Shown one piece after another: positions 28,324 to 41,110 of a DNA stretch of 64,000 nt (the stretch's first letter is position 1; each line of letters starts with the position of its first letter). The notes beneath the pieces were generated by a model. That model saw nothing but the letters and a program-made list of their open reading frames with translations, was not told where the DNA came from and ran no database searches. Source of the stretch: Gemmatimonadales bacterium (GTDB taxonomy: Bacteria; Gemmatimonadota; Gemmatimonadetes; Gemmatimonadales; GWC2-71-9); NCBI GenBank assembly GCA_039794085.1, contig JBDIWC010000008.1:1-64000 (forward strand). The letters run 5' to 3'. Position numbers and translations under genes: made by a program.

Positions 28324-28651
28324 GGGAACAACTTCGCACCCTGACACGCGGCGCGCGGATCGAAGTACGGCGAGCCGGGTCCAGAAGACGCGAGACCGAC
28401 CCGGCCGATTGTCGCGTCGACCGATCGTGTCGATATGACACACAATTGAGCCTTTCGACACGTGTCGCTTCGACACCTCGACGAACCGACAGGACTCCTT
28501 CTGCTCCAGAAGGATTTACCCGACTTGCAGTTCGCGTTCCGGTGGCTCGTTTCTTTCATGGTACCGATCATGCAGAGGTGCAGTCTGAAGCATGTGAAGT
28601 CTTGCGGACCATGCCGTTGGTGGCAGTCGTCCCTACGGAACGGAGGTGTCG

Positions 28652-29074
28652 ATGCGATTTCACCCTCTCCTGGCCGCCTTGCTTTCCAGTACAACGATCT
28701 TCGCGTGTTCGAGCGACCCACAGGGGCCGACGCTGTCACCGCCCGATTTCTCGACGAGGCCGGTCAGGCCGGGTGTCGATCCGATCCCGGCATTGCGCGC
28801 CGCCGGCGAAGTGGGGACGATCGTCGTGGAGGGCGCCATGAATACACCGGAGCCTTGCTATGATTTCCGTGCGTCGGTGGATTCACGGGCCGGTCGAGTC
28901 TCTCTCGAAATAGTCGCCGCCCGGCAGCCGGTCTTGTGCCCCGCCGTGATCGCAGCCTTCGCCTATGAAACCATTCTCCGCCGCGTCGCTCCGGGCTCCT
29001 ACTCTGTTCTCGTCACCCACGTCCTTGACGGCCGCCGCAGCCAGGTACTGGAATCCGTGGTCACGGTCCGTTGA
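28652..29074 (+). CDS. Hypothetical lipoprotein
   Basis: GGAGG RBS, signal peptide ending IFAC; TPEPCY and CPAVI Cys pair. Confidence 0.65.
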   Translation: MRFHPLLAALLSSTTIFACSSDPQGPTLSPPDFSTRPVRPGVDPIPALRAAGEVGTIVVEGAMNTPEPCYDFRASVDSRAGRVSLEIVAARQPVLCPAVIAAFAYETILRRVAPGSYSVLVTHVLDGRRSQVLESVVTVR

Positions 29075-29168
29075 GTGTCCTCCAATACGACCGTGGCTTG
29101 CGGCGTAGGATTGAACCGCGAAGAGCGCCAAGGACGCGAAGCCTTCGAACTTCGAACTTCGAACTTCC

Positions 29169-29409
29169 CTGCTGCTGCGGACGGTGCAGCAGAACCTCCG
29201 GTTGCGGCACTGTTCGCCCCGAACGGAGGAGAGCTATCTCCAGCGGGCTCGGCGATTCATCCGGTTCCGTGGCGGTGTGATCCGCGTGACCTGGGCAGTG
29301 CCGAGAGGCGGGCGTTCCTGACCTATCTGGCGGTGGAAGGGAGGATGGCGGGGGCCACGGCGGCCCAGGCCCGTTCCGCGCTCTCGTTCCTTCCCCGGCG
29401 GACCTGCTG
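29169..29409 (+). pseudogene. intI: Integron integrase remnant A (N-terminal domain, frameshifted, joined to a probable extreme C-terminus)
   Basis: LLRTVQQNLRLRHCSPRTEESYLQRARRFIRFRG, then DPRDLGSAERRAFLTYLAVEGRMAGATAAQARSALSFL, then PADLL. Confidence 0.85.
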
Positions 29410-29430
29410 GATCTGCCGCCCGCTGCAGGC

Positions 29431-29459
29431 TTTACAGATTACGTTGTGAGCGGTACACT
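29431..29459 (+). promoter_or_regulatory. Putative cassette promoter Pc-A
   Basis: TTTACA-N17-TACACT, 40 bp upstream of the crossover. Confidence 0.55.
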
Positions 29460-29469
29460 CTTCGGGGAT

Positions 29470-29506
29470 TCGGAGGTGCAGCGGGAGACCGATAAACAGG
29501 TTCGGC
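29470..29506 (+). other. attI-like site A (crossover GTTCGGC at 29500)
   Basis: Cassette begins GTTCGGCGG and ends CCACCGAAC (8/9 complementary); no attC upstream. Confidence 0.65.
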
Positions 29507-29561
29507 GGACAAGGGAGCAGGATGGTGAAGGTGGTTGGAGGTCAGGGCAAAGGAGCAAGGC

Positions 29562-29813
29562 GTGACTCGAGTTCAGATTCGTTCGTGCGCTCACTGAGTG
29601 ACTCGCCTGCATGCCGTCCGTGTGGCGGCGCGAGTGCGGCGCGAACTCAGAGTTGAGGTAGACGTGGTCGGTGGCCCGTACGGGCAGTTCGGAGTGGAGG
29701 TCGACGGGAGGACGGTGCTTGAGGGCAGCCGGCTGGCGATGCTGGGCATCCTTCCGTCTGCGGACCAGGTGCTCGCTGCGGTACGACAGGAATTGGCGAA
29801 GGAGTCTTCGTGA
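29562..29813 (+). CDS. SelW/Rdx-family selenoprotein (CxxU), cassette-borne
   Basis: AGGAG RBS and GTG 29562; MTRVQIRSCAH-UGA(29595)-VTRLHAVRVAARVRREL...GGPYGQFGVEVDG; hairpin 29601-29635. Confidence 0.75.
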
Positions 29814-29902
29814 TCACCGACCGAGTCCATCTGTCGACTGCGTCGCCGATCCAAGGCATGGCCTTGGCAAGCCGATCCGGTTGTGCGCCTTGCATGTTCA
29901 CC

Positions 29903-30004
29903 ACCGAACAAGCCGCTTCAGCTGCCGGACGCCGCGCGACGGTTTGAGAAAGCTCGAGAGGTGGGCGCTTGCGGCGCTTGCAGCTGAACGGCAGGGCGTT
30001 CGGC
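29903..30004 (+). other. attC site
   Basis: R'' ACCGAAC; GCCGCTTCAGCTGC pairs with GCAGCTGAACGGC leaving one extrahelical base; R' GTTCGGC. Confidence 0.85.
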
Positions 30005-30029
30005 TGCGGCTCGTCGAAGGAGTTAGAGC

Positions 30030-30596
30030 ATGACTGGTATCGTCGCGTCAATCAGCGCCGAGTTCCTGCGCTACAAAGCCTACGCCGAGGGCGCCCTGGG
30101 CCAAGTGGACGACCGTGAGCTGACCACACGGGCGCCCGGTGGCGGCAACTCCATCGCGATCATCTGCTGGCACGTCGGCGGCAACCTCCGCTCGCGATTC
30201 ACGGAGTTCCTGTCCACCGATGGCGAGAAACCTTGGCGCAACCGGGAGGAGGAGTTCGGCGAGCGGTCGGTGACCCGCACGGAGGTTGTGGCGCACTGGG
30301 AGGAGGGGTGGGCGGTCCTCCTCTCGACCCTCGCGGCGCTTACGGACGCAGACCTGGCCAGGACGGTCACGATTCGCAATCAGCCGCTGCAGGTGTCCGA
30401 GGCCTTGCACCGCTCACTGGCCCATTTGGCCTATCACGTTGGTCAAGTCGTCTTGCGGGCACGGGAGCTCCGTGGGGATGCCTGGCAGTTCCTGAGCATT
30501 CCCCCGGGCCAGTCGGCCGCGTACAATGCGACGCCGGTCTTCGAGAAGGCGGCTGCCCATGCAGCCCAGTTGCGCGGGCGCGCCTCGCCTCGCTGA
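30030..30596 (+). CDS. DinB-like / DUF1572 family protein (cassette)
   Basis: NSIAIICWHVGGNLRSRFTEFLSTDGEKPWRNREEEF and HLAYHVGQ motifs; followed by R'' GCCTAAC at 30608 with the rest of the attC lost. Confidence 0.85.
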   Translation: MTGIVASISAEFLRYKAYAEGALGQVDDRELTTRAPGGGNSIAIICWHVGGNLRSRFTEFLSTDGEKPWRNREEEFGERSVTRTEVVAHWEEGWAVLLSTLAALTDADLARTVTIRNQPLQVSEALHRSLAHLAYHVGQVVLRARELRGDAWQFLSIPPGQSAAYNATPVFEKAAAHAAQLRGRASPR

Positions 30597-30772
30597 GGGT
30601 CGCAGCAGCCTAACATGCGGCCGGGGTCCGAGCCGACCTCGGCGACGCTCCGGTACCGGGGCTGCATAACATGTGCTTCCTGCTGCCGCGGGCAGAGGCG
30701 ACCTTTGAGGAGCCACCGCGGCTCCTCCCGGTGCCTCGCCGACCTCTCGCCGTGCGGGCGATGGCGGCACGC

Positions 30773-31171
30773 TCACCGGAGTGAGTCGAGATACCGGGCG
30801 GGAGTCAGCACCCGCACACCGAGAACCTCCCGGCCCAGGAACGGTCCGAAGTCCCGCAGGTCCCCCGTGATCAGGTGGGTGGCGCTCGCGGCGACCGCCC
30901 CCGCCAGAATCGGCCAGTCCTTTTCCCGGAGCTCAATGGTCTTTCGAAGCGCCGAGTCCAGGGTCAGGGCCCGCTTCACCGTCATGGCCTTGAGGAGACC
31001 GTCGAGTCGCGCGAGCTGGTCCGCCGTGGTGAGGTTGCGTCGAGCCTCTGCCACCGCGTAGTCCGACGTGAGCAAGGTGACCCCGGGAAGATCCCAGAGC
31101 CGCCGGACGCCGGCATCCGGACGCCAGGCAGCAGAGAACAGGACGTTGGCGTCCAGAAACAGCCGATCCAA
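30773..31171 (-). CDS. PIN-domain (VapC-like) toxin
   Basis: LFLDANVLFSA, EARRNL, KDWPILAGA and LITGD motifs. Confidence 0.88.
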   Translation of the reverse strand: MDRLFLDANVLFSAAWRPDAGVRRLWDLPGVTLLTSDYAVAEARRNLTTADQLARLDGLLKAMTVKRALTLDSALRKTIELREKDWPILAGAVAASATHLITGDLRDFGPFLGREVLGVRVLTPARYLDSLR

Positions 31172-31174
31172 GGG

Positions 31175-31474
31175 TCAGGCGTTCTCGGGACGTTCATGGG
31201 GAATGGCGTCGGGGTCGAGGCCCAGCGCCCGAACTTCGGCCACGGCGCGAGCATAGTCCCCGGCGTCAACGGCGTTGGAGAGGAGAAATTCCGCCTTCCG
31301 CTCGGGACCGTATATCTCCAGTGCGACCGTCATCGCGGGCCGCAGGAGAATGCCCTCCGGGGTCTCCTCGGCGATGATCTCGGATCCCTCTTCAATCCCA
31401 AAGAGCCGCCGAAGCTCGGCCGGAATGACCAGGGTGCCGCGCTTTCCGACGCGTCCATGTTCTCTGACTGGCAT
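31175..31474 (-). CDS. AbrB/MazE/SpoVT-family antitoxin
   Basis: VGKRGTLVIPAELRRLFGIEEG...EGILLRP. Confidence 0.9.
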   Translation of the reverse strand: MPVREHGRVGKRGTLVIPAELRRLFGIEEGSEIIAEETPEGILLRPAMTVALEIYGPERKAEFLLSNAVDAGDYARAVAEVRALGLDPDAIPHERPENA

Positions 31475-31483
31475 ACCGTTCTC

Positions 31484-31510
31484 CTGATACTCTGAATGTA
31501 AGAATATCAG
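31484..31510. promoter_or_regulatory. Inverted-repeat operator of the TA operon
   Basis: CTGATACTCT-N7-AGAATATCAG (9/10) just upstream of the antitoxin start. Confidence 0.55.
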
Positions 31511-31613
31511 TCGATGTGGTCAAGGCCTCAGTGGGCACCCTCCACCTCGTCGGTGGAACCGTCCGGTGTCCACGCTGTTCAGGTGGACTCGCGGACATCG
31601 CGAGAGTTCAAGT

Positions 31614-31996
<383 letters not shown>

Positions 31997-32008
<12 letters not shown>

Positions 32009-32083
32009 GTTGCGGATCGTACATTCTCTCACGACTGGGCTGTCGGGGGGCACGTTCCCCTGCAGCTCCAATACTTGTTAGGC
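31997..32083 (+). promoter_or_regulatory. Pc-like promoter plus attI-like site B (crossover GTTAGGC at 32077)
   Basis: TTGCGG-N17-TACATT; GCAGCTCCAATACTTGTTAGG shared with copies C and D. Confidence 0.75.
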
Positions 32084-32101
32084 ATCATACCGAGGTAGCG
32101 T

Positions 32102-32773
32102 GTGACGACCACCTCCCCCTTCCCTAGAGCCGTTGAGGCCGCACAGAGCTACCGCCGTCGAGTTGGGCCGCGGCTTCGACAGAGTCAGACGGCTGCTCTT
32201 GACGAAGTGGATGCGCGGCTCCAGCGTCTAGACGCGGAATACGCGGAGCTGGTGTCCCTGAATAGTCTGCTGCTAGCTCAGGATGGGCAGGGACTCGTGA
32301 TGCACCGCAATCCCGTCAGCGGAGAGGTCACAGTCAGGTTCGGCAGTGCGGGGCCGGGATTCACGCTCCAGCCTGCAGATCCAGCCGTACCAATCGAACT
32401 TGACAGCCACTCACGAGTTGGCGGGTATTTGCCGGGAAGCTCTTCTGCGGACGGTGCCGAGACCCCAGGTTACAAAAGGCGAATGGAGGAGTTGCTAGAG
32501 GCTTTTTACAGCGGTGCCCATAGGATTCAGAAATTGATGCGGGAGGTTCTGGGTAAGCCGCATAAAGGATCGATGGGCATAACGACAGTTCGGAACCATC
32601 TCGTCGAGCATCCCTCCACAGGCTCGTTGTATTCCTTTGGCTACTCCACTAATGGGCCCGTCGTGAAGCCTATCCAGCGCGGCCAGCCGGAATGGATCGA
32701 CGCTGGCCTGTTCGCAAACGCCGAGGAATTTGTTACTTCGCTCGAGACTGCTTTTGGTGGAGCGATGCACTGA
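32102..32773 (+). CDS. Hypothetical cassette protein, possibly HEPN-like
   Basis: GAGGT RBS; RNHLVEH motif; cassette GTTAGGCATCA...TGATGCCTAC. Confidence 0.75.
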   Translation: MTTTSPFPRAVEAAQSYRRRVGPRLRQSQTAALDEVDARLQRLDAEYAELVSLNSLLLAQDGQGLVMHRNPVSGEVTVRFGSAGPGFTLQPADPAVPIELDSHSRVGGYLPGSSSADGAETPGYKRRMEELLEAFYSGAHRIQKLMREVLGKPHKGSMGITTVRNHLVEHPSTGSLYSFGYSTNGPVVKPIQRGQPEWIDAGLFANAEEFVTSLETAFGGAMH

Positions 32774-32774
32774 T

Positions 32775-32870
32775 GCCTACCCCGCGCTTCCTGCCGACGG
32801 CGCGGTCAGGTTCAGCCCGTTGGCATTAGAATCCAGTGGCGCGCCGCAGCAGAAGCGCGCTGCGTTAGAG
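32775..32870 (+). other. attC site
   Basis: R'' GCCTACC (variant); GCGCTTCCTGC pairs with GCAGAAGCGC; R' GTTAGAG. Confidence 0.8.
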
Positions 32871-32904
32871 AGCGCCACAGCAACCGACAGTGTGGGCGAG
32901 GGCA

Positions 32905-33966
32905 ATGAAGACGATCCTCGATATCGTGCAGGAGTTCCGGGAGTCTGACCCGCCGCTGACCTATTTGGGCCAGGACGAGTCAGTGGCCTACGGCAAGTTC
33001 CTTGAGTTCGAGGTGCTGGACTGGAACGGAACGACGCGGATCGTCCCGAGCGAGGCCCTGAATCTCCCAGGGCGCCCTGGCAACCGCTCCTTCATGTACA
33101 GAGGCCAAACGACTCGTTACCCGACTTGTCAGGCATCCCTGCTTCGAGGTGCACCGGACGACGAGTGGCAGGTCAAGGCGCTTTTGACCCTTGAGCGTTT
33201 CCGTGTGGCGGAACTTGAGCTTGTTCTTCGCGAACACCCCTTCAAGGCGGTAGTGGACAAGCGCGGATTCCACGTCGACTACCACGGTCTCGCTCAGCAC
33301 TACGGCATCCCCACGTCATTGTTGGACCTGACTTCGAACGTGGAAGTTGCGGCCTTCTTCGCCGTCGCGAGGTGGGATCGCGAGGCGGGGTCCTTCCGTC
33401 CGATGGAGAGCGGAACCGGTGTCATGTATCGCTTCGACTGGGCTGCGTTCGGCCCGGAGTACGCGAAGTTCTTCGAGCCAGTCGGGTTCGGACCAGGACT
33501 GAGACCCGCCCGCCAGCACGCATGGACGTTTCGGCTGCGGCACGGCGTCGACTTTCAGAATGTCCCCCACGTGTCGGCGTTCGAATTCAGCCATTCCAAG
33601 GCAGCGTCTCTCGAGATGTTCGAGAGGTTCGACGGCGGCGCATGGCTGTACCCGCCGAATTGTCTGGCCTCGCTCGTCGAGAAGCTTCGGGACTTGCCAT
33701 TCGTGACGATGCACGCGATCCGACACGCCGCGAAGCAGGACGGCCAGAGGTCGGAAGACATAGAGACGGGCGCGGAAAGAGCGGCCCACTTCCTCAACGC
33801 CAAGCTGGGCCTGGACATCGTGGACGGGTACGAGCTTCAACCCGAGGAGGAAGATCTTGCGGTCGCCCAGCAGCAAGCATCCGCGCTGGACGAGTCGCTT
33901 GGAACGTTACGCTTCGGGTGGCGGCTTGTTCGGACGGCGGGCAGCGACGACGAGCCGGCGCGGTGA
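32905..33966 (+). CDS. FRG-domain protein (cassette)
   Basis: MYRGQ...LAQHYGIPTSLLDLTSNVEVAAFFA FRG signature. Confidence 0.9.
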   Translation: MKTILDIVQEFRESDPPLTYLGQDESVAYGKFLEFEVLDWNGTTRIVPSEALNLPGRPGNRSFMYRGQTTRYPTCQASLLRGAPDDEWQVKALLTLERFRVAELELVLREHPFKAVVDKRGFHVDYHGLAQHYGIPTSLLDLTSNVEVAAFFAVARWDREAGSFRPMESGTGVMYRFDWAAFGPEYAKFFEPVGFGPGLRPARQHAWTFRLRHGVDFQNVPHVSAFEFSHSKAASLEMFERFDGGAWLYPPNCLASLVEKLRDLPFVTMHAIRHAAKQDGQRSEDIETGAERAAHFLNAKLGLDIVDGYELQPEEEDLAVAQQQASALDESLGTLRFGWRLVRTAGSDDEPAR

Positions 33967-33972
33967 GGCGCT

Positions 33973-34036
33973 ATCTAACACACTGTTGCAGCGGACAGTC
34001 CGCTGCACGGCCCGCCGCTGACTCGGCGCGTTAGTC
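33973..34036 (+). other. attC site
   Basis: R'' ATCTAAC; CAGCGG/CCGCTG arms; R' GTTAGTC; GGCGCTATCTAAC complements the cassette start GTTAGAGAGCGCC (12/13). Confidence 0.8.
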
Positions 34037-34060
34037 GTCAGCACTTGCCTGGAAGCAGCT

Positions 34061-35098
34061 ATGGTCCTTGATCCCGAGACAATCATCGCGACTGCAGCCC
34101 TAAGCGAAGTGGGTAAGGGGGTCGTCAAGGGGCTCTCCCAGCTCGGTCGCAAGTGGATAACGGACCTGTTCGGAGACACCAAGGGCCCGGCCGTGGCGAA
34201 AGCCGAGAGCAACATGGCCGCGTTCCTCATTCAGCTTGCAACCAGGATTGGCCGTCTCGAGCAAGCAGCTGCTGATTCGGCTGCCCTCGAGGCCCGCCTA
34301 CGTGACGCCCAAGCGGACCCGGACGTTCTCGTCACCACCAAACTGGCTGTCCTCGCTGCGGCCCGGTCCTCCGATTCTACCAAGCGTGATCTGCTCGTTG
34401 AAGTCGTCACCCGACGCATTGCCTCGGCATCGGAATCAGCAGAGGCTATTGCCGCGAACGTAGCGGCAGAAGCTGTTCCAAGAATGAACGCAGCCGACCT
34501 CGACACGGTTGGCCTCCTCGCCCTCGTAGCAGGGGTCCGACCGAGCATCCTGCCCCCCGATTCTCCCCCGCCCGATAAGCCTGACAACGCGCCTCTTGTG
34601 GGAATTGGCCGGTGGTACTGGGCAGCGACGCAGGAGCTAATCGCTGACCTTTGGTCCGGTCACGATCGACTCCTGCACTTGGCATCGATTGGTCTTTGCT
34701 CTATCCACCTTGGTCTCAGGCGCGATCTATTCGATGAACTGCGACGCGGAATACCTTCATGCCAAGGCCTTGCCGAGGGCCACCACATTGTTGACATCAA
34801 TCGGTTCCTCACGTTCTTTGACGCAGGCAGGAATCTGAGGCGTGCATGGCTTCAAGGAATGCAGGAAGCGCTGTTGACCCCCGCTGGCATTCTCATTGGC
34901 AGGACTGTCGTTGACATCCGGCTGCCAACAGACGTTCCCAACCGGAGGTGGGTATCGGACGCGAGCGCGCTACGGGAAGCCCTAGCCAGGTCATCGCCCT
35001 GGGATGGCCATACCCTAAATAGGCGTTTTGTGGAACTCCTTGATCAGGAGCTTGCAAGGCGGGTCACCGAGGCGAAGCGCGCGCAAGGGCGGCTCTGA
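34061..35098 (+). CDS. Hypothetical cassette protein, LPO_1073/Vpar_1526-like
   Basis: DPDVLVTTKLAVLAAARSSDSTKRDLLVEVVTRRI pattern; sits between attC sites. Confidence 0.7.
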   Translation: MVLDPETIIATAALSEVGKGVVKGLSQLGRKWITDLFGDTKGPAVAKAESNMAAFLIQLATRIGRLEQAAADSAALEARLRDAQADPDVLVTTKLAVLAAARSSDSTKRDLLVEVVTRRIASASESAEAIAANVAAEAVPRMNAADLDTVGLLALVAGVRPSILPPDSPPPDKPDNAPLVGIGRWYWAATQELIADLWSGHDRLLHLASIGLCSIHLGLRRDLFDELRRGIPSCQGLAEGHHIVDINRFLTFFDAGRNLRRAWLQGMQEALLTPAGILIGRTVVDIRLPTDVPNRRWVSDASALREALARSSPWDGHTLNRRFVELLDQELARRVTEAKRAQGRL

Positions 35099-35143
35099 CG
35101 GCTGCCGCCACACCCCCCGCAGCTCAAATCCAGCTCGTTACGT
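35095..35143 (+). other. Degenerate attC (left arm largely deleted)
   Basis: CTGACGGCT echoes the cassette start GTTAGTCGTCAG; right arm CCGCAGCTCAAATCCAGCTC-GTTACGT remains. Confidence 0.55.
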
Positions 35144-35163
35144 TGCATCCCGAGGTGCCTAGA

Positions 35164-35775
35164 ATGACCTACTACGATATCGATCGCCTTCGTCGCCTAC
35201 CTCTGACAACAGGTCTGCTGCTACTGACCTGGTCTGCGGCAGCTGTGAGTATCGTGGCGCCCGCGAACGTGCAAATCCTCGGCCTGCCATTCTCGATTGG
35301 CCGCCCGGAACTCCTTCCGATTGGCCTGGCCGTCGCGGCAGTCTACGGCGGGCTCCGCTACTACTACTATGCGATGATGCTCGAGCTGAGTCCCTATCGC
35401 CGCCGCCGCGACCTCCTTGATGGGCTTTGGGCAAAGGGGACAAAGAAGCCCGGCCTGAGTGGAACCTACTGGGGGCCAATAGCCTTCGAGGGATCGAGGT
35501 CGTTCGGGAAGTCTTCTGAGGCAGAAGCATACGGGAAAGAAGTAGCCTTGGCATTTCCGAAGTTTGCAGGTGCGCGAGTTACGTCACGAGCTGAGTATCG
35601 CCCAGGCGTTGACCAAGATGGGGATGAGTACACGAGTTTCGAGGTCTTTCTGAACATTCCCGTGCGTTGTCGCGCGGCCGCCCTTCTTCAAGATCTAGAC
35701 TACTCCTCGCCAGCATGGCTGCCGTTGTCTAGCGTGCTGCTGTACGTCCTACGTTCTCTGCCGAACGCCACCTAG
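35164..35775 (+). CDS. Hypothetical membrane protein (cassette)
   Basis: GAGGT RBS; two N-terminal and one C-terminal hydrophobic helices. Confidence 0.75.
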   Translation: MTYYDIDRLRRLPLTTGLLLLTWSAAAVSIVAPANVQILGLPFSIGRPELLPIGLAVAAVYGGLRYYYYAMMLELSPYRRRRDLLDGLWAKGTKKPGLSGTYWGPIAFEGSRSFGKSSEAEAYGKEVALAFPKFAGARVTSRAEYRPGVDQDGDEYTSFEVFLNIPVRCRAAALLQDLDYSSPAWLPLSSVLLYVLRSLPNAT

Positions 35776-35906
35776 CAGAGGGTGACAGTCTGGCAGCCGG
35801 GAGGCGCTCCTCTTCCGGCGTCGCGGCCGTGCCCACATGTTGATTGGTGGATGGCGCGGCCGCTCAGTTCCCAGACGGCTGCCGCTGAAACCCAAAGTCG
35901 TTAGCA
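35770..35906 (+). other. attC site (long, partly degenerate)
   Basis: R'' ACCTAGC (variant); GGCAGCCG/CGGCTGCC and GCGGCCG arms; R' GTTAGCA at 35900. Confidence 0.65.
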
Positions 35907-36340
35907 GCCCGGAGTGCCAGCGCGGGGCAGCATCGAAGCCTGGGGATCGCCGGTCAGGTGATCCCGGATCATCCGCCGCAACAGCTTTCCTGAGGGTCCC
36001 CGAGGCAGCATCGGCGCAAAGAGAACCCGGCGCGGAACCTTGTAGGGCGCGAGACGCCCCCGGCAGTGGGCAATAAGGGACTCGGCTCCGGCCTCCACGC
36101 CGGGACCAAGGACCACAACCGCCACCACCTCCTCATCGAGCCGGTGATCGGGCACGCCCACCACGGCCACATCGGCCACGGCGGGATGGCCCAGCAGCGC
36201 CTCCTCCACCTCCCGCGGCGACACATTGAATCCGCCATGGAGGATGAGATCCTTCTTCCGGTCCACGATGAAATAGTCCCCGTCCTCATCCCGCGTCGCG
36301 ATGTCCCCGGTCCGGAGCCATCCATCATGAAGCGCCTCGG
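35901..36340 (-). pseudogene. Diverged duplicate of the 3' 440 bp of the acyl-CoA ligase gene
   Basis: Colinear with 39536-39975, no indels, scattered substitutions. Confidence 0.92.
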
Positions 36341-36690
36341 ATGTTCGTGCGTTTCTGGGATGGTTGGCGGAGCAGCGCCGGGTGGCGGCCTCGATTCAGA
36401 ACCAGGCTGGGGGTATAGCGGAGCTCCGAACGAAGTATCCGGCGGCGGGCCGGTCGTGGTCCGGGCAGTGGCTCTTTCCGGCGAGAAACGACGTCGCGTC
36501 AATCCTTCGCCACCCACCTTCTCGAACGAGGCTACGATATCCGGACGATCCAGGCACTGCTGGGTTATCGGGATCTGTCCAGCACGATGATCTACACTCA
36601 CGTCCTGAACCGGGGAGGCCAAGGAGTCCGGAGTCCGGTGGACGACCTGGCGGAGGGGTCCGGTCCGGCCGTCTTGCGGAACCAGGCTGC
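36340..36690 (+). pseudogene. intI: Integron integrase remnant C (internally deleted)
   Basis: DVRAFLGWLAEQRRVAASIQNQA / [20 protein letters not shown] / [49 protein letters not shown]. Confidence 0.9.
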
Positions 36691-36761
36691 GGACCGTACA
36701 ATCTCTCACGAATGGGCTGTTCGAGGGCATGTTCCCCCGGCAGCTCCAATACTTGTTAGGC
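36674..36761 (+). promoter_or_regulatory. Pc-like promoter plus attI-like site C (crossover GTTAGGC at 36755)
   Basis: TTGCGG-N17-TACAAT; invariant 21-mer ending in the crossover core. Confidence 0.75.
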
Positions 36762-36806
36762 GTGTTCGATCGGCTGCTCGACAACCCGGCCTCAAGGGGA
36801 TAATCA

Positions 36807-37034
36807 ATGACGTACAAAGTGGTTCCGTTCAATGCAGCTCTCGGAAACTTGGAGGATGCCTCCCACCTTGCCGCACACATCGAGGGGATCATTACCAGCC
36901 ATGCGGCCGACGGGTGGGAATACGTTGGCGTTCATCAGCTCCAGACGTTCAAGGCAGGGTCGGGTGGGTGCTTCGGTCTTGGGGCTACTCCACCGACGAC
37001 CGTCGCGACGGAGTTCGTTGTGTTCAGGAAATGA
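36807..37034 (+). CDS. Small hypothetical protein (DUF4177-like), cassette gene 1
   Basis: YKVVPF...ADGWEYV...FVVFRK; ATGA-coupled to the next gene. Confidence 0.7.
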
Positions 37035-37360
37035 GGCATCTTTTTCTCCTCCTGATTCGTGCGTACTGGGCCTTCTGGCCACACGGACTCAGGCGGCAGT
37101 GTCTCTATCGCGAGTCCTGCTCGCGACATGTGTACCGTGTCGCGAACGAGGTAGGAGCGTCTGCTGGTTTTCGAGCCCTGCTCTACCGCGTCCGGAAATG
37201 CCGACCTGGTTACACCATGTCCGCCAGTGAGACCGGAATGGGCCTTCTTCTGCGAGACGGGTCGTTCCTACCAGGGCACATGGTCGCCCCTGGTGTGATC
37301 ACGAGAGTGCCCAGTCCTCGGCGCGGGGCCGACTGGCGCACTCACGGACGAAACGCTTAA
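37031..37360 (+). CDS. YidD/haemolytic-domain-like protein, cassette gene 2
   Basis: LLLIRAYW...[12 protein letters not shown]...RVRKCRPG three-Cys pattern. Confidence 0.75.
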
Positions 37361-37418
37361 CTTCCAAATGGAGCCGACGAGCGCTGGCTCATAGACGCGC
37401 GCAGCTCATTTTTGCACG
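37355..37418 (+). other. attC site lacking an intact R'
   Basis: R'' GCTTAAC complements the cassette start GTTAGGCGT; AAATGGAGC/GCTCATTT L boxes. Confidence 0.65.
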
Positions 37419-37536
37419 CCCTATGTCGCAGTAGCCGACAGCGGCGGCTAGAACCTCAATGAACCAGACCACCGGTTCAACGATCCGCCTGTGCACGCGT
37501 TAGCGGGCGCCTTCTTGCTCACCTAACCACTGTTTG

Positions 37537-37679
37537 GGACGATCCTGGAATTCCTGGGTCATCGGGATGTGTCCACGACGATGATCTACCCGCACGTCCT
37601 GAACCGGGGAGGCCGAGGGGTCCGGAGTCCGGTGGACAACCTGGCGGAGGGGTCCGGCTCGGCCGTCTTGCGGAATTAG
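37537..37679 (+). pseudogene. intI: Integron integrase remnant D (last ~45 codons)
   Basis: [50 protein letters not shown]. Confidence 0.9.
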
Positions 37680-37755
37680 GCTGCGGACCGTACAATCTCT
37701 CACAAATGGGCTGTTCGAAGGGCATGTTCCCCTGCAGCTCCAATACTTGTTAGGT
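37668..37755 (+). promoter_or_regulatory. Pc-like promoter plus attI-like site D (crossover GTTAGGT at 37749)
   Basis: TTGCGG-N17-TACAAT; invariant 21-mer ending in the crossover core. Confidence 0.75.
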
Positions 37756-37797
37756 GGACAGTCTGACATGACCCCCAGCACGCGATGAGGAGACGAG

Positions 37798-38796
37798 ATG
37801 AAGGTATTCATCAGCTGGAGTGGTGAGCGGAGCCACCTTCTTGCGCAGGCGCTGCACGGCTGGCTGCCCCTCGTCTTGCACTATGCCAAGCCTTGGCTGT
37901 CCGAGGCGGACGTCTCGGCGGGCGACCGATGGGCCCAGGCCGTGGCGAAGGAGCTTGAGTCCTCGAATTTCGGCATCATCTGTGTGACCCCGGAGAATCT
38001 CGGCTCTCCATGGGTTCTCTTTGAGGCCGGAGCCCTTGCGAAGTCTATGCAAGGCGCCAAAGTCATCCCGCTGCTCTTCAACTTGGAGTTCAGCGATATC
38101 AGCGGCCCGTTAGCCCAGTTTCAGGCCAAGAAGGTCGAGCGAGGTGGTTTGGCTGAGGTCATCAACTCCCTCAACCAATCAGCGGAACAAGGCGTGCCTG
38201 AGGATCGGGCGAAGCAGCTCTTCGGTGCATTGTGGCCAGAGCTTGAGAAGCAACTGGAATCGATCCCGGACGAGGCGCCTACCGAGAAGCACATGAGGCC
38301 GCAGCACGAGATCATGGAAGAGCTTGTGACCGGTGTCCGAGGACTCGACGTGCGATTTCGAGACCTCGAAGCCTCCGTTTCAGAGCCGAGCCTCCGGTCG
38401 CGTCGCCGCCGATTCCGCCACTTCCATCCAATGATGTTTGACGAAATGGCGATGATGGTCTCCGAGGAAGGGGACGACCCCATCTCGCTTCTCATGTTTG
38501 GTGGACTCCTCCGAGACGATTTCCCTTGGCTGTACGAGATTATCGTTGAGGCCTACCGTGAGGTCCGAGATGGGGACGAGAAGGCGGCACAGAAGGCAAT
38601 CGACCGCCTTCGTCGCGTCATGAAGGCCGTTGGCCGCGGTCAGTTTATGGAGGAGTTCGCCGGGTCGAAGGAAGGACACATGATGATGATGGAGATGCCA
38701 ATGATGCTGGACCACTTTCTACATCGCTTCGAGTCTCGCCGGCTCAAAGGTAAGCCCGACACGGACGCGGGCGCGGCGGATGATTCCAAGGAGTAA
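37798..38796 (+). CDS. TIR-domain protein (cassette)
   Basis: MKVFISWSG...GDRW...FGIICVTPENLGSPWVLFEAGAL, with the catalytic-position Glu. Confidence 0.92.
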   Translation: MKVFISWSGERSHLLAQALHGWLPLVLHYAKPWLSEADVSAGDRWAQAVAKELESSNFGIICVTPENLGSPWVLFEAGALAKSMQGAKVIPLLFNLEFSDISGPLAQFQAKKVERGGLAEVINSLNQSAEQGVPEDRAKQLFGALWPELEKQLESIPDEAPTEKHMRPQHEIMEELVTGVRGLDVRFRDLEASVSEPSLRSRRRRFRHFHPMMFDEMAMMVSEEGDDPISLLMFGGLLRDDFPWLYEIIVEAYREVRDGDEKAAQKAIDRLRRVMKAVGRGQFMEEFAGSKEGHMMMMEMPMMLDHFLHRFESRRLKGKPDTDAGAADDSKE

Positions 38797-38798
38797 CC

Positions 38799-38859
38799 GC
38801 CTAACAGCAGCATGAGGAGGCCGGGCGCCGCGCGCCGCCGCTGATGCTGAGCGTTACGT
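38799..38859 (+). other. attC site
   Basis: R'' GCCTAAC; CAGCAT/ATGCTG L boxes; R' GTTACGT. Confidence 0.8.
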
Positions 38860-38887
38860 AGCAACAACCTTCGGCGGACGGCAGCGC

Positions 38888-39415
38888 ATGGCGACAATAC
38901 TAGAACGCCAGAAAGCGGCTCAGATGCGCGCCGCCGAACGCGCCACGAAACGGGCGCTGTCGCTCTCAATTGCGCTACTTCGTGCCGACGCTCTCTACGA
39001 AGCGTTCACGACCGCAGCCAAAGACGTCGATGCGGCGGATGCCGGCGCGCGCGCAGAAGCGAGTGATGCAGCGCTCAAGCTGCGCAACACCGCATTCTCT
39101 CGCGCCGACGCAATGGCAACGGTGCATTTCGGTGCCCTCTACGCTGTCGCCGATAAATGGCAGGAATGGAAGTTCAGCGACCCAACGGTCGACAAACTCC
39201 TCGCCGATCCAAACCTCACGTTGCTAAAACAACATCGCCACGCGGTGTTTCACGCTGATCACTACGACCACGGGAGCTTCAAAGCTCTCGGAGAAAAGCC
39301 CGGCGCCTTTGAGTGGGCCGCGCGCACCGCCGCCGCCATCCGGGCGTACCTGAAGCGGTTTCACGCCGATCCGGCCAAGCATGTCATCGACCACATCAAG
39401 CGCACCGGCTGGTAG
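38888..39415 (+). CDS. Hypothetical cassette protein, possibly HEPN-like
   Basis: Helical ORF bounded by attC sites; RHAVFH motif. Confidence 0.75.
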   Translation: MATILERQKAAQMRAAERATKRALSLSIALLRADALYEAFTTAAKDVDAADAGARAEASDAALKLRNTAFSRADAMATVHFGALYAVADKWQEWKFSDPTVDKLLADPNLTLLKQHRHAVFHADHYDHGSFKALGEKPGAFEWAARTAAAIRAYLKRFHADPAKHVIDHIKRTGW

Positions 39416-39436
39416 TGCGCGGTGCCGCGCGCCGCT

Positions 39437-39541
39437 TCCTAACAGGCGTTGATGCTGACCAACGCGGGTCTGTCGGAAGCGGTGGCTTGCGTTGCCGCAT
39501 TTTGTTGATAAGCGTTGGCAGCATAACACTATTCGTTAGCA
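39437..39541 (+). other. attC site (terminal)
   Basis: R'' TCCTAAC; TTGATGCTGACCAACGC pairs with GCGTTGGCAGCATAA; R' GTTAGCA overlaps the fadD stop. Confidence 0.85.
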
Positions 39542-41110
39542 GCCCGGAGTGCCGGCGCGGGGCAGCATCGAAGCCTGGGGGTCGCCGGCCAGTTGATCCC
39601 TGATCATCCGCCGCCTCAGCTTTCCCGAGGGACCCCGCGGTAGTACCGACACAAACAGAACCCGGCGCGGAACCTTGTAGGGCGCGAGACGACCCCGGCA
39701 GTGGGCAATTAAGGACTCGGCTCCGACTTCCACCCCGGGACAAAGGACCACGACCGCCACCACCTCCTCGTCGAGCCGGTGATCGGGCACACCCACCACG
39801 GCCGCATCGGCCACGGCGGGATGCGCGAGCAACACTTCCTCCACCTCCCGCGGCGACACGTTGAATCCGCCGTGGAGGATGAGATCCTTCTTCCGGTCCA
39901 CGATGAAGTAGTCCCCGTCCTCATCCCGTGTCGCGATGTCCCCGGTGCGGAGCCATCCATCATGAAGCGCCTCGGCCGTGGCCTGGAGCTGGTTCCAGTA
40001 TCCCTTCATGAGCAGAGGTCCGCGGATTTCGATCTCCCCCCGCACTCCACACTCGCCGAGCACCTGTCCCCCGTCATCCACCAACCGGAACTCCACGCCG
40101 TCGAGCGGGATCCCGATGCTCCCCGCCTTGCGCGGCCGACCGATCCGGTTCTGCGACGCCACCGGTGACGTTTCGCTCAGGCCGTACCCCTCCAGCACGG
40201 CCACTCCGAAGCAAGCCTCGAAGGCGCGCATGACCTCCGCCGGCATCGGGGCCGCCCCCGAGATACACTGCCGAAGGGAGACGGGTACCGGAAGCCTAAG
40301 TTCCTCCACATAGCGGTACAGCGAGAGGTACATGACCGGCACGGCGGCGAGGAACGTGACCGCGTGACGATGTATCGCCTCCATCGCCGCGGCCGGAGTG
40401 AAGCGCGGCAGGAGCACGGAGGTGCCCCCCGCCAGGAGAACCGCATGCTGGATGACCGTGTGTCCAAAGCTGTGGAAGAGCGGGAGCACGCCGAGTGCCA
40501 CCGTGGCCGGGCCATCCGGCAGGAAACCCGCTGCCACGGCACGCGCATTCCAGAGGAGGCTCCCGTGGGAGAGTTCCACTCCCTTGGGGCGCCCGGTGGT
40601 ACCGGAGGTGTAGAGAATGAGCGCGGTGTCCTCCGGGCCCGCGTCGTGTCCCGTCACCACAGGTTCAGCGGCACAGGCCTCATCCCAGCGAGTCACACCT
40701 GGATCAGGACCCGAGGGGACGGCTCCCACCGCGATCACGGGCACCGCCACTCCCATCCGATCAAGAGCGCCACGCGCCGCTCCGAGAGACTCGACCGACG
40801 CGACGACCAAACGCACTCCCGCGTCGGAAAACTGCCACCCCAGCTCGTCGGCCGTGAGCTGCGGGTTGAGAGGGACGAGTATGCACCCCGCCTCGTGTCC
40901 GGCGAAACAGGCCACCGTGAACTCAGCACAGTTGGGAAGAAGAATCGCGAGTCGATCCCCGGGGTGCAGCCCGATCTGACGAAGATGGGCCGCGAGACCC
41001 ACCGCCGTTTCGTGAAGCCGCCGGGCGGTCCAAATCTCGTTCCGGACGATGAGGGCAGGATGGTCGGGGGACGTGCGAACCCGATCCCGGAGGATGGAGG
41101 CGAGGGTCAT
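39536..41110 (-). CDS. Long-chain-fatty-acid--CoA ligase (FadD-like)
   Basis: YTSGTTGRPKG, EGYGLSE, TGD, DRKKD and PSGK motifs. Confidence 0.92.
   Translation of the reverse strand: MTLASILRDRVRTSPDHPALIVRNEIWTARRLHETAVGLAAHLRQIGLHPGDRLAILLPNCAEFTVACFAGHEAGCILVPLNPQLTADELGWQFSDAGVRLVVASVESLGAARGALDRMGVAVPVIAVGAVPSGPDPGVTRWDEACAAEPVVTGHDAGPEDTALILYTSGTTGRPKGVELSHGSLLWNARAVAAGFLPDGPATVALGVLPLFHSFGHTVIQHAVLLAGGTSVLLPRFTPAAAMEAIHRHAVTFLAAVPVMYLSLYRYVEELRLPVPVSLRQCISGAAPMPAEVMRAFEACFGVAVLEGYGLSETSPVASQNRIGRPRKAGSIGIPLDGVEFRLVDDGGQVLGECGVRGEIEIRGPLLMKGYWNQLQATAEALHDGWLRTGDIATRDEDGDYFIVDRKKDLILHGGFNVSPREVEEVLLAHPAVADAAVVGVPDHRLDEEVVAVVVLCPGVEVGAESLIAHCRGRLAPYKVPRRVLFVSVLPRGPSGKLRRRMIRDQLAGDPQASMLPRAGTPGC

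Follow-up and report, generated by a model that had tools for sequence, protein, structure and literature searches.

Why does a single chromosomal locus carry four integron platforms, none of which has an intact integrase gene? The question was raised by a 64,000-nucleotide stretch from a Gemmatimonadales bacterium (assembly GCA_039794085.1, contig JBDIWC010000008.1, positions 1 to 64,000; hereafter the window, G000:C8:1-64000), which belongs to a genome, G000, of 4.16 Mb in 115 contigs with 94.7% completeness. The sequencing runs containing most of the window carry the label hot-spring metagenome. A sequence-only reading had described positions 29169–39541 as a stack of four dead-integrase platforms in tandem, each heading its own cassette array. 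We confirmed the four-platform stack as a real observation, and the interpretation given with it was partly supported. In our judgement, the locus probably represents four dead reverse integrons, in which intI is transcribed toward attI and the cassettes, that were piled up by repeated additive recombination and were likely still edited by an integrase from another locus.

Four platforms and two integrase families

Mapping to the intact 335-amino acid IntI of a congener, G001, whose codon numbering is used throughout, confirmed four intI remnants, all on the cassette (forward) strand. Platform A contained an intI remnant at 29169–29412, in which codons ~10–82 were fused to the last few codons, followed by a predicted promoter resembling the cassette promoter (Pc) at 29431–29459 and by attI at 29483–29506 with the crossover G at 29500. 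Platform B (31588–32083; first placed at 31614) carried a frameshifted intI from codon 194 to the end, with a Pc-like motif at 31997–32025 and the attI crossover at 32077. Platform C (36338–36761) retained codons 53–76, 210–230, and 272 to the end (Pc-like motif, 36674–36702; crossover, 36755), and platform D (37537–37755) retained codon 289 to the end (Pc-like motif, 37668–37696; crossover, 37749). The GTT crossovers at 29500, 32077, 36755, and 37749 were where the sequence-only reading had put them, and its counts of 2, 4, 1, and 2 cassettes behind platforms A, B, C, and D also held, with the addition of a 38-bp stub in C.

The B, C, and D remnants showed 87–93% DNA identity with an intI that passes the TIGR02249 cut-off, and remnant A showed 44–56% amino acid identity with the same gene, indicating an origin from IntI and not from a Xer-type recombinase. 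Two integrase families were represented: A was grouped with copies on contigs C11, C14, and C45, and B, C, and D with the copy on contig C22. B and C were sisters (support 92/96, 7 shared sites). The monophyly of B, C, and D (support 42/69) was neither shown nor rejected, and D was not shown to join B and C. The 5' breakpoints all differed (codons ~10 in A, 194 in B, 53 in C, and 289 in D); a MITE-like (miniature inverted-repeat transposable element) unit with fixed ends was rejected, as the copies share no conserved ends. A second candidate, intI plus its site as a cassette ending in attC, was also rejected, because the sites have no R'' and no fold (z −1.9 to 0.5).

The search for an intact intI, which the sequence-only reading had confined to the window, was widened to the whole assembly (94.7% complete) and found none; the locus itself holds remnants only. 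The best one, C22:55900-56765, carries a frameshift; relative to the intact G001 gene, with which it shares the same upstream region, it lacks 73 bp and has one inserted base. A profile search of G000 returned 11 clear platform copies and 2 weak hits. A second stack, of two dead platforms that are 92.6% alike, lies on contig C14 (G000:C14:23298-27132), with cassettes that we take to be toxin-antitoxin-like pairs. C11 (G000:C11:35416-40303) carries two additional intI pieces, a 5' one and a middle one, that have neither promoter nor attI and lie 4–13 kb from the platform on that contig; since they overlap in codons, more than one copy was involved. A further decayed scrap of an intI 3' end lies just upstream of the broken C22 intI (G000:C22:55074-55705), in a segment with an open reading frame (ORF) that is presumably REP (repetitive extragenic palindromic)-associated-transposase-like. 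Compared with attC-site clusters that have no integron integrase (CALINs; at least two attC and no intI nearby), intI is not intact at our locus, yet a recognizable intI pseudogene heads each array.

In all four platforms, attI and the cassettes lie downstream of intI on the same strand. An intI above the family cut-off was present in 24 of 41 genomes searched, and directional attC sites were found downstream on the intI strand at 13 of 26 intI loci of relatives, several with short flanks, against 0/26 in each of the three other layouts. These counts were obtained with a strict directional attC motif, which detects only 2 of the attC sites in the window; a looser first scanner had missed decayed sites and given false positives in coding DNA, hence the stricter motif. 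Reverse integrons are the norm in this order.

attI sites, predicted promoters, and cassette turnover

A consensus scan predicted the promoter-like motif of platform A as TTTACA-17-TACACT, and the same motif was found in C11, C14, and C45. Platforms B, C, and D have TTGCGG-17-TACA(A/T)T, likewise a predicted promoter, at the intI stop. The 17-bp spacing between the −35 and −10 hexamers was kept in all four platforms, and related motifs occurred in the intact integrons of G001 and of G213, a genome of another genus, and in a remnant in G213. The attI core, defined as the last 18 bases, showed 0/54 changes in B, C, and D against 54/474 in the neighboring sequence (p = 0.002). The four sites did not fold like attC, which fits their identity as attI. 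Comparison of the sequences thus supports the view that they behave as the attI sites of reverse integrons. When an 18-base attI pattern was searched in metagenomes, 120 loci were found, apparently chance matches, with no orthologous locus; among these were one tyrosine-recombinase-like hit (34% identity) and one match to 49 bp of attI.

The comparison with sequencing runs covered four of the six listed, X1, X3, X4, and X5. X1 is possibly the source of the assembly, X3 and X4 come from the sample of X1 and hence are not independent, and X5 comes from another study. In X5, a 7919-base contig carried, in order, the toxin-antitoxin pair described below, a C-type remnant with attI, a foreign stretch, the third and fourth cassettes of array B (B3–B4), and the acyl-CoA synthetase gene that flanks the stack in G000. 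The differences from the window were 37/928 in the toxin-antitoxin pair, 38/339 in the remnant with attI, 87/1911 in B3–B4, and 213/1906 in the synthetase; 107 other letters stand between the toxin-antitoxin pair and the remnant, and 1326 between attI and B3–B4. In X5, a relative therefore has a single platform at this place, with the toxin-antitoxin pair on one side and the synthetase on the other. The 1326 foreign letters run exactly from the attI crossover to the attC crossover at 34030, a cassette-precise turnover behind a dead intI. Since X5 appears to share the dead allele of C, its cassettes would have changed after the integrase broke, and this pattern points to an integrase acting in trans. 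Homologous exchange could instead have changed the cassettes in this relative. The proposal that the platforms are served in trans, made in the sequence-only reading, gains support from the conserved attI core, from the persistence of a promoter-like motif, and from the X5 cassettes. That reading had also suggested comparing first cassettes across strains: X5 does have other cassettes behind a C-type dead platform.

The arrays consist of attC-bounded cassettes in one orientation with R''/R' pairs at their ends, all on the forward strand. Array A contains cassette A1 (29500–29998), with a SelT/SelW/SelH-like ORF at 29562–29813 and a well-folded attC at 29903–30004, and cassette A2 (29998–30618), with a DinB/DUF1572 ORF and an attC broken just past R''. 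Array B (32077–35906) has four cassettes, of which the first and last are of unknown function and the second and third encode an FRG-domain protein and an LPO_1073/Vpar_1526-like protein; its attC sites lie at 32775–32870, 33973–34036, ~35093–35143 (left arm lost), and 35770–35906. Array C (36755–37536) consists of one two-ORF cassette (DUF4177 and YidD-like) with an interrupted attC at 37355–37505, and of the stub, whose R'' is broken. Array D (37749–39541) holds a TIR-domain cassette (attC 38799–38859) and an unknown-ORF cassette (attC 39437–39541). The R box was paired in the minimum-energy structure in 3 of the 8 attC candidates folded (A1, D1, and D2); the B2 site had a strong fold (z −3.75) with an unpaired R box, and the B1, B3, B4, and C1 sites were decayed. 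It had been claimed that the first cassette of each array starts with the near reverse complement of its own R'', as a signature of insertion at that point. All four first cassettes did match at 6/7 core bases, and two of five internal cassettes (A2 and B2) reached the same level, the others matching at 4, 5, and 5 of 7. The GTT therefore marks a cassette boundary and nothing special to first cassettes.

Several cassettes drew attention for their contents. The A1 ORF has an in-frame TGA at the CxxU position, and read-through improved its family E-value from 4e-4 to 1.5e-6, still far below the cut-off; selA is present in G000. A1 is thus a candidate selenoprotein carried as an integron cassette. 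The TIR protein (37798–38796, +) matched PADLOC TIR-TM (E 3e-62) and the FRG protein (32890–33966, +) matched PDC-S15, making both defense-like cassettes. The attC of the TIR cassette (38824–38856) was common to many other contigs of the same sample (bin depth 45–60, with differing loose ends), which suggests that attC sites of this type are common in that community. Among 17 scanned ORFs, none belonged to the qacE/sul1 or transposase families, and an Rfam scan of the 64-kb window detected two tRNAs only, both outside the stack region.

Junctions, relatives, and the origin of the stack

The stack is flanked by a recA-YraN-lipoprotein block, whose first gene we take to be recA, and by an acyl-CoA synthetase-ftsK block. 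Besides the promoter-like motifs, two features between the platforms had been missed by the sequence-only reading. Before B lies a PIN and AbrB/MazE toxin-antitoxin pair (30773–31474, −), sharing 86% identity with the terminal pair of the C22 integron, together with a 43-bp scrap (31545–31587, +) of the gene downstream of that integron (C22:62045-62086, 88%, E 1.6e-6, the best non-self genome hit), which is joined to intI. Platform B is itself 86% like the C22 intI. Because the toxin-antitoxin pair, the flank scrap, and intI are all C22-like, B looks like a circularly permuted C22-type locus. Ahead of C, 443 bp from the 3' end of the acyl-CoA synthetase gene are present as a duplicate (35898–36340, −), which is 91% identical to 39533–39975 and has its frame intact; the full gene (39536–41110, −) forms the right flank of the stack. 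The junction of the duplicate with intI codon 53 of platform C shows a 3-bp microhomology (CGG).

In B, C, and D, an array end or a scrap of a flanking gene was thus joined to the interior of intI, each at another codon, so that the later attI sites in tandem stand behind truncated intI fused to foreign sequence (junctions 31588, 36338, and 37537). The same junction form was seen at the second stack on C14. Since attI is located at the intI 3' end, the left break of a copied array that retains both promoter and attI falls within or ahead of intI. Platform A differed in form: it starts near the intI start, directly after short genome-wide repeats, and has lost its middle. Two short repeat families with other genomic copies adjoin it at 29108–29169, one of them consisting of tandem TTCGAAC units in many copies; the G213 remnant likewise starts right after a repeat. 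The different breakpoints and the junction scars argue for additive recombination followed by decay, not for one miniaturized element. The idea of purpose-built miniaturized platforms was not supported in view of these unrelated breakpoints, the two families, the scar-like junctions, the single platform in X5, and the destruction of the platform in G001.

The synthetase fragment and the full gene differed at 38 positions, 24 of them third positions, with the frame kept. On the fragment's own branch (G001 as outgroup, 126 codons), there were 6 synonymous and 4 non-synonymous changes, compared with 27% synonymous expected (p = 0.03), and this branch (10 changes) was shorter than that of the full gene (20 changes). 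The intact frame and the synonymous excess suggest that the fragment diverged as a working allele and not as a pseudogene; small as the numbers are, they favor a working allele that was cut recently over a duplicate that had been decaying for long.

Homologous loci were compared in relatives. In G001, the toxin-antitoxin pair is followed by a remnant that has the internal deletion of C and has lost promoter and attI to an apparent insertion sequence; platform A is absent, and the C22-type integrase is intact in this congener. In G002, recA-YraN and the synthetase are present with other genes between them and no intI. From these comparisons we propose that a C22-type integron copied in circularly permuted form (the toxin-antitoxin pair, then the flank scrap, the intI tail, and attI) would first have landed between recA-YraN and the synthetase, in an ancestor common to the G000 lineage and G001. 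A second allele of the same locus, from C to the synthetase, would then have arrived from a related lineage, with a homology anchor on the right and an illegitimate left joint inside the resident synthetase gene, producing the 443-bp duplicate. D and A would have been added separately. Deletions would have eroded the integrase genes, the promoter and attI being mostly kept because, we propose, the cassettes depend on them, and the C22 integrase, which was broken recently, may have served the sites up to that point. The genome has a comEC-family gene.

Several points weigh against this reconstruction. No donor strain or intermediate was seen among the sequences compared, and an old tandem duplication or re-insertion of a circle would give identical junctions. 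C keeps codons 53–76, which are absent from B and G001, and B lacks the deletion common to C and G001; this pattern requires extra steps. The synonymous test of the synthetase fragment is based on 10 changes only, and in divergence from G001 the full synthetase exceeds the flanks only slightly, with a similar level in the fragment. Which synthetase copy is foreign is weakly fixed by one indel pair in X5, itself known as a table of matching pieces and not as a sequence, and those pieces say nothing about A. For the sites served in trans, the conservation difference between the promoter hexamers and their neighbors was not significant (p = 0.08), a generic scan for promoters reached significance at only 3 of 27 intI loci, the 18-bp boundary of the attI core was picked after the alignment had been viewed, and part of the attI conservation may date from the time of intact integrons. 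The comEC gene occurred in 10 of 14 controls as well and is common in non-competent bacteria.

The best-surviving alternative, although an unlikely one, is a selected multi-entry architecture, in which minimal units of intI tip, promoter, and attI are kept for parallel expression and exchange and are served in trans. It would account for the conserved attI core, the 17-bp motif spacing shared by all four platforms and the G213 remnant, the turnover behind a dead platform, and the 11 platform copies with a second stack on C14. Yet the units share no ends, X5 has a single platform here and G001 a destroyed one, the GTT is gone in 2 of the 11 copies (C45 and C18:58751), 5 of the 8 attC sites leave the R box unpaired, and the genome assembly holds no intact integrase. 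The distribution of stacks also speaks against such an architecture. The intI-tail pattern occurred in 142 of 251 genomes of the order (the only tally that includes the unpublished genome G096), and G000 had the most matches, 6; at least two matches were found in 26 of the 250 other genomes, yet among the match positions in all 26, a same-strand pair within 20 kb was found only in G213. There, an intact intI with its array is followed 13.9 kb later by a remnant of codons 307–322 with promoter motif, attI, and cassettes, just 75% like the intact gene. Behind the intact intI of G213, the first cassette has an exact 460-bp tandem duplicate (L210, oriented 1276–2190). Stacking is therefore rare, with 1 other of 250 genomes as a lower bound: decayed copies escape the tail pattern (5 of the 11 in G000, among them A and B), and most of the genomes are in fragments.

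We consider it much less probable still that the stack was built by the integrase itself, units of intI tail, promoter, attI, and cassettes ("super-cassettes") being excised through a secondary site in intI and then inserted again at att sites. For delta-attI cassettes, aberrant crossovers that involve attI and the R'' of attC have been proposed (PMC12901181). D and the second C14 copy start 8–11 bp past a broken attC R'', and the X5 match begins 4 bp past the R'' of A2, as such a process might leave them. Hairpin-forming attC sites are, however, expected deletion hot spots too. No remnant in the set begins at a G|TT crossover behind an intact attC, and the B and C junctions lie in ordinary genes, with microhomology.

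The least credible explanation is that strain variants were joined into a chimeric tandem order during assembly: the genome derives from a metagenome, the fully covering runs represent one sample that may be the assembly's own source, and no listed unitig spans the whole region, the breaks falling on exact repeats of 33–35 bp, but all four platform junctions lie within single X1 unitigs (28500–29885, 29897–31751, and 36238–37668) with 0 differences and a flat depth of 7.0–8.65, the same as the flanks and typical of the long X1 unitigs, which makes a chimera unlikely, and the region containing the junction of toxin-antitoxin pair and remnant is independently present in G001 and X5. The order across the 33–35-bp repeats is not proven by the unitigs; the longest exact repeats in the region, 35 bp at 36022–36056 and 36238–36272, are shorter than ordinary reads, which would resolve it.

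Known integrons and the meaning of the stack

The sequence-only reading had not recognized this as a described arrangement, but a precedent exists. On Salmonella genomic island 1 (SGI1), the complex class 1 integron In104 contains a pair of attI1 sites, both functional, and a truncated groEL-intI1 fusion precedes the second of them (PMC3285670, PMC2297512). The two loci are alike in having tandem attI sites, each with its own cassettes, and, heading the later platform, a fusion between truncated intI and a piece of an unrelated gene, as in the synthetase|intI and flank|intI joints found here. In104 has two sites, an intact intI1 in cis, the canonical orientation, and resistance cassettes, and is part of a mobile island. 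In contrast, the G000 locus has four sites from two integrase families, in reverse orientation and at a fixed place on the chromosome, with copies diverged by 10–18% and no intact intI in the assembly; it did not match the class 1 pattern of an integrase intact in cis, a 3' conserved segment, and transposon ends, having no intact intI and, among the ORFs scanned, no member of the qacE/sul1 or transposase families. By analogy, the locus can be regarded as a four-platform, integrase-dead relative of the two-platform In104 layout.

Reverse integrons are reported from Treponema (PMC3607928), as a paraphyletic group with inverted integrase (PMC4889954), and from Archaea with attI downstream of intI (PMC9668308). 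The G000 platforms resemble them in the transcription of intI toward attI and the cassettes and in the position of attI at the intI 3' end; as far as the Treponema account goes, described reverse integrons have one attI each, against four here. In Xanthomonas, the integrase is commonly lost while the array is retained (10.1101/2025.06.18.660453), and such loss has been explained by the cost of the integrase (PMC3510236). The origins of CALINs (PMC4889954, PMC8618304) and internal cassette promoters (PMC8876359) have also been discussed. In the Xanthomonas and CALIN papers, decayed integrons, like ours, lost intI by deletions or frameshifts while arrays persist, and service in trans is proposed; unlike them, the G000 arrays each retain an attI with a promoter-like motif, several such platforms standing together at one locus. 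For type VI secretion system immunity arrays of Vibrio cholerae, a model of illegitimate recombination facilitated by homology has been proposed (PMC5361080), in which alleles of different lineages are stacked at one locus with a homology anchor at one end and an illegitimate joint at the other; those arrays differ in their cargo and have no integrase platform. Delta-attI gene cassettes contain attI-derived sites inside arrays that are still able to recombine (PMC12901181); such a site replaces the attC of a cassette and moves along with it, whereas the G000 site heads an array and comes with intI sequence. Literature searches, whose scope lay mostly outside subscription papers and outside supplements (which may hold integron tables), found no paper on the orientation or stacking of integrons in this lineage, nor on four stacked platforms or stacked chromosomal reverse integrons.

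The In104 precedent for several attI sites limits the surprise. The present comparison provides definitions of attI and of a candidate promoter for a reverse-integron clade for which we found no literature, together with an intact integrase in a congener. A bolder proposal, which we put forward only tentatively and think rather doubtful, is that the last ~150–220 bp of reverse integrons (intI tip, promoter, and attI) form a self-sufficient, non-autonomous capture-and-expression unit, of which this lineage would have seeded at least 11 at about seven places, stacked and selected them, and served them by one integrase in trans. If that were true, it would amount to a distributed network of integrons and would open a direct path to cassette clusters that lack an integrase. 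On the reading that we favor, four dead reverse integrons piled up by additive recombination, chromosomal integron arrays can grow by the stacking of whole platforms and not just cassette by cassette, which would give one origin for integrase-less clusters that remain expressed and editable.

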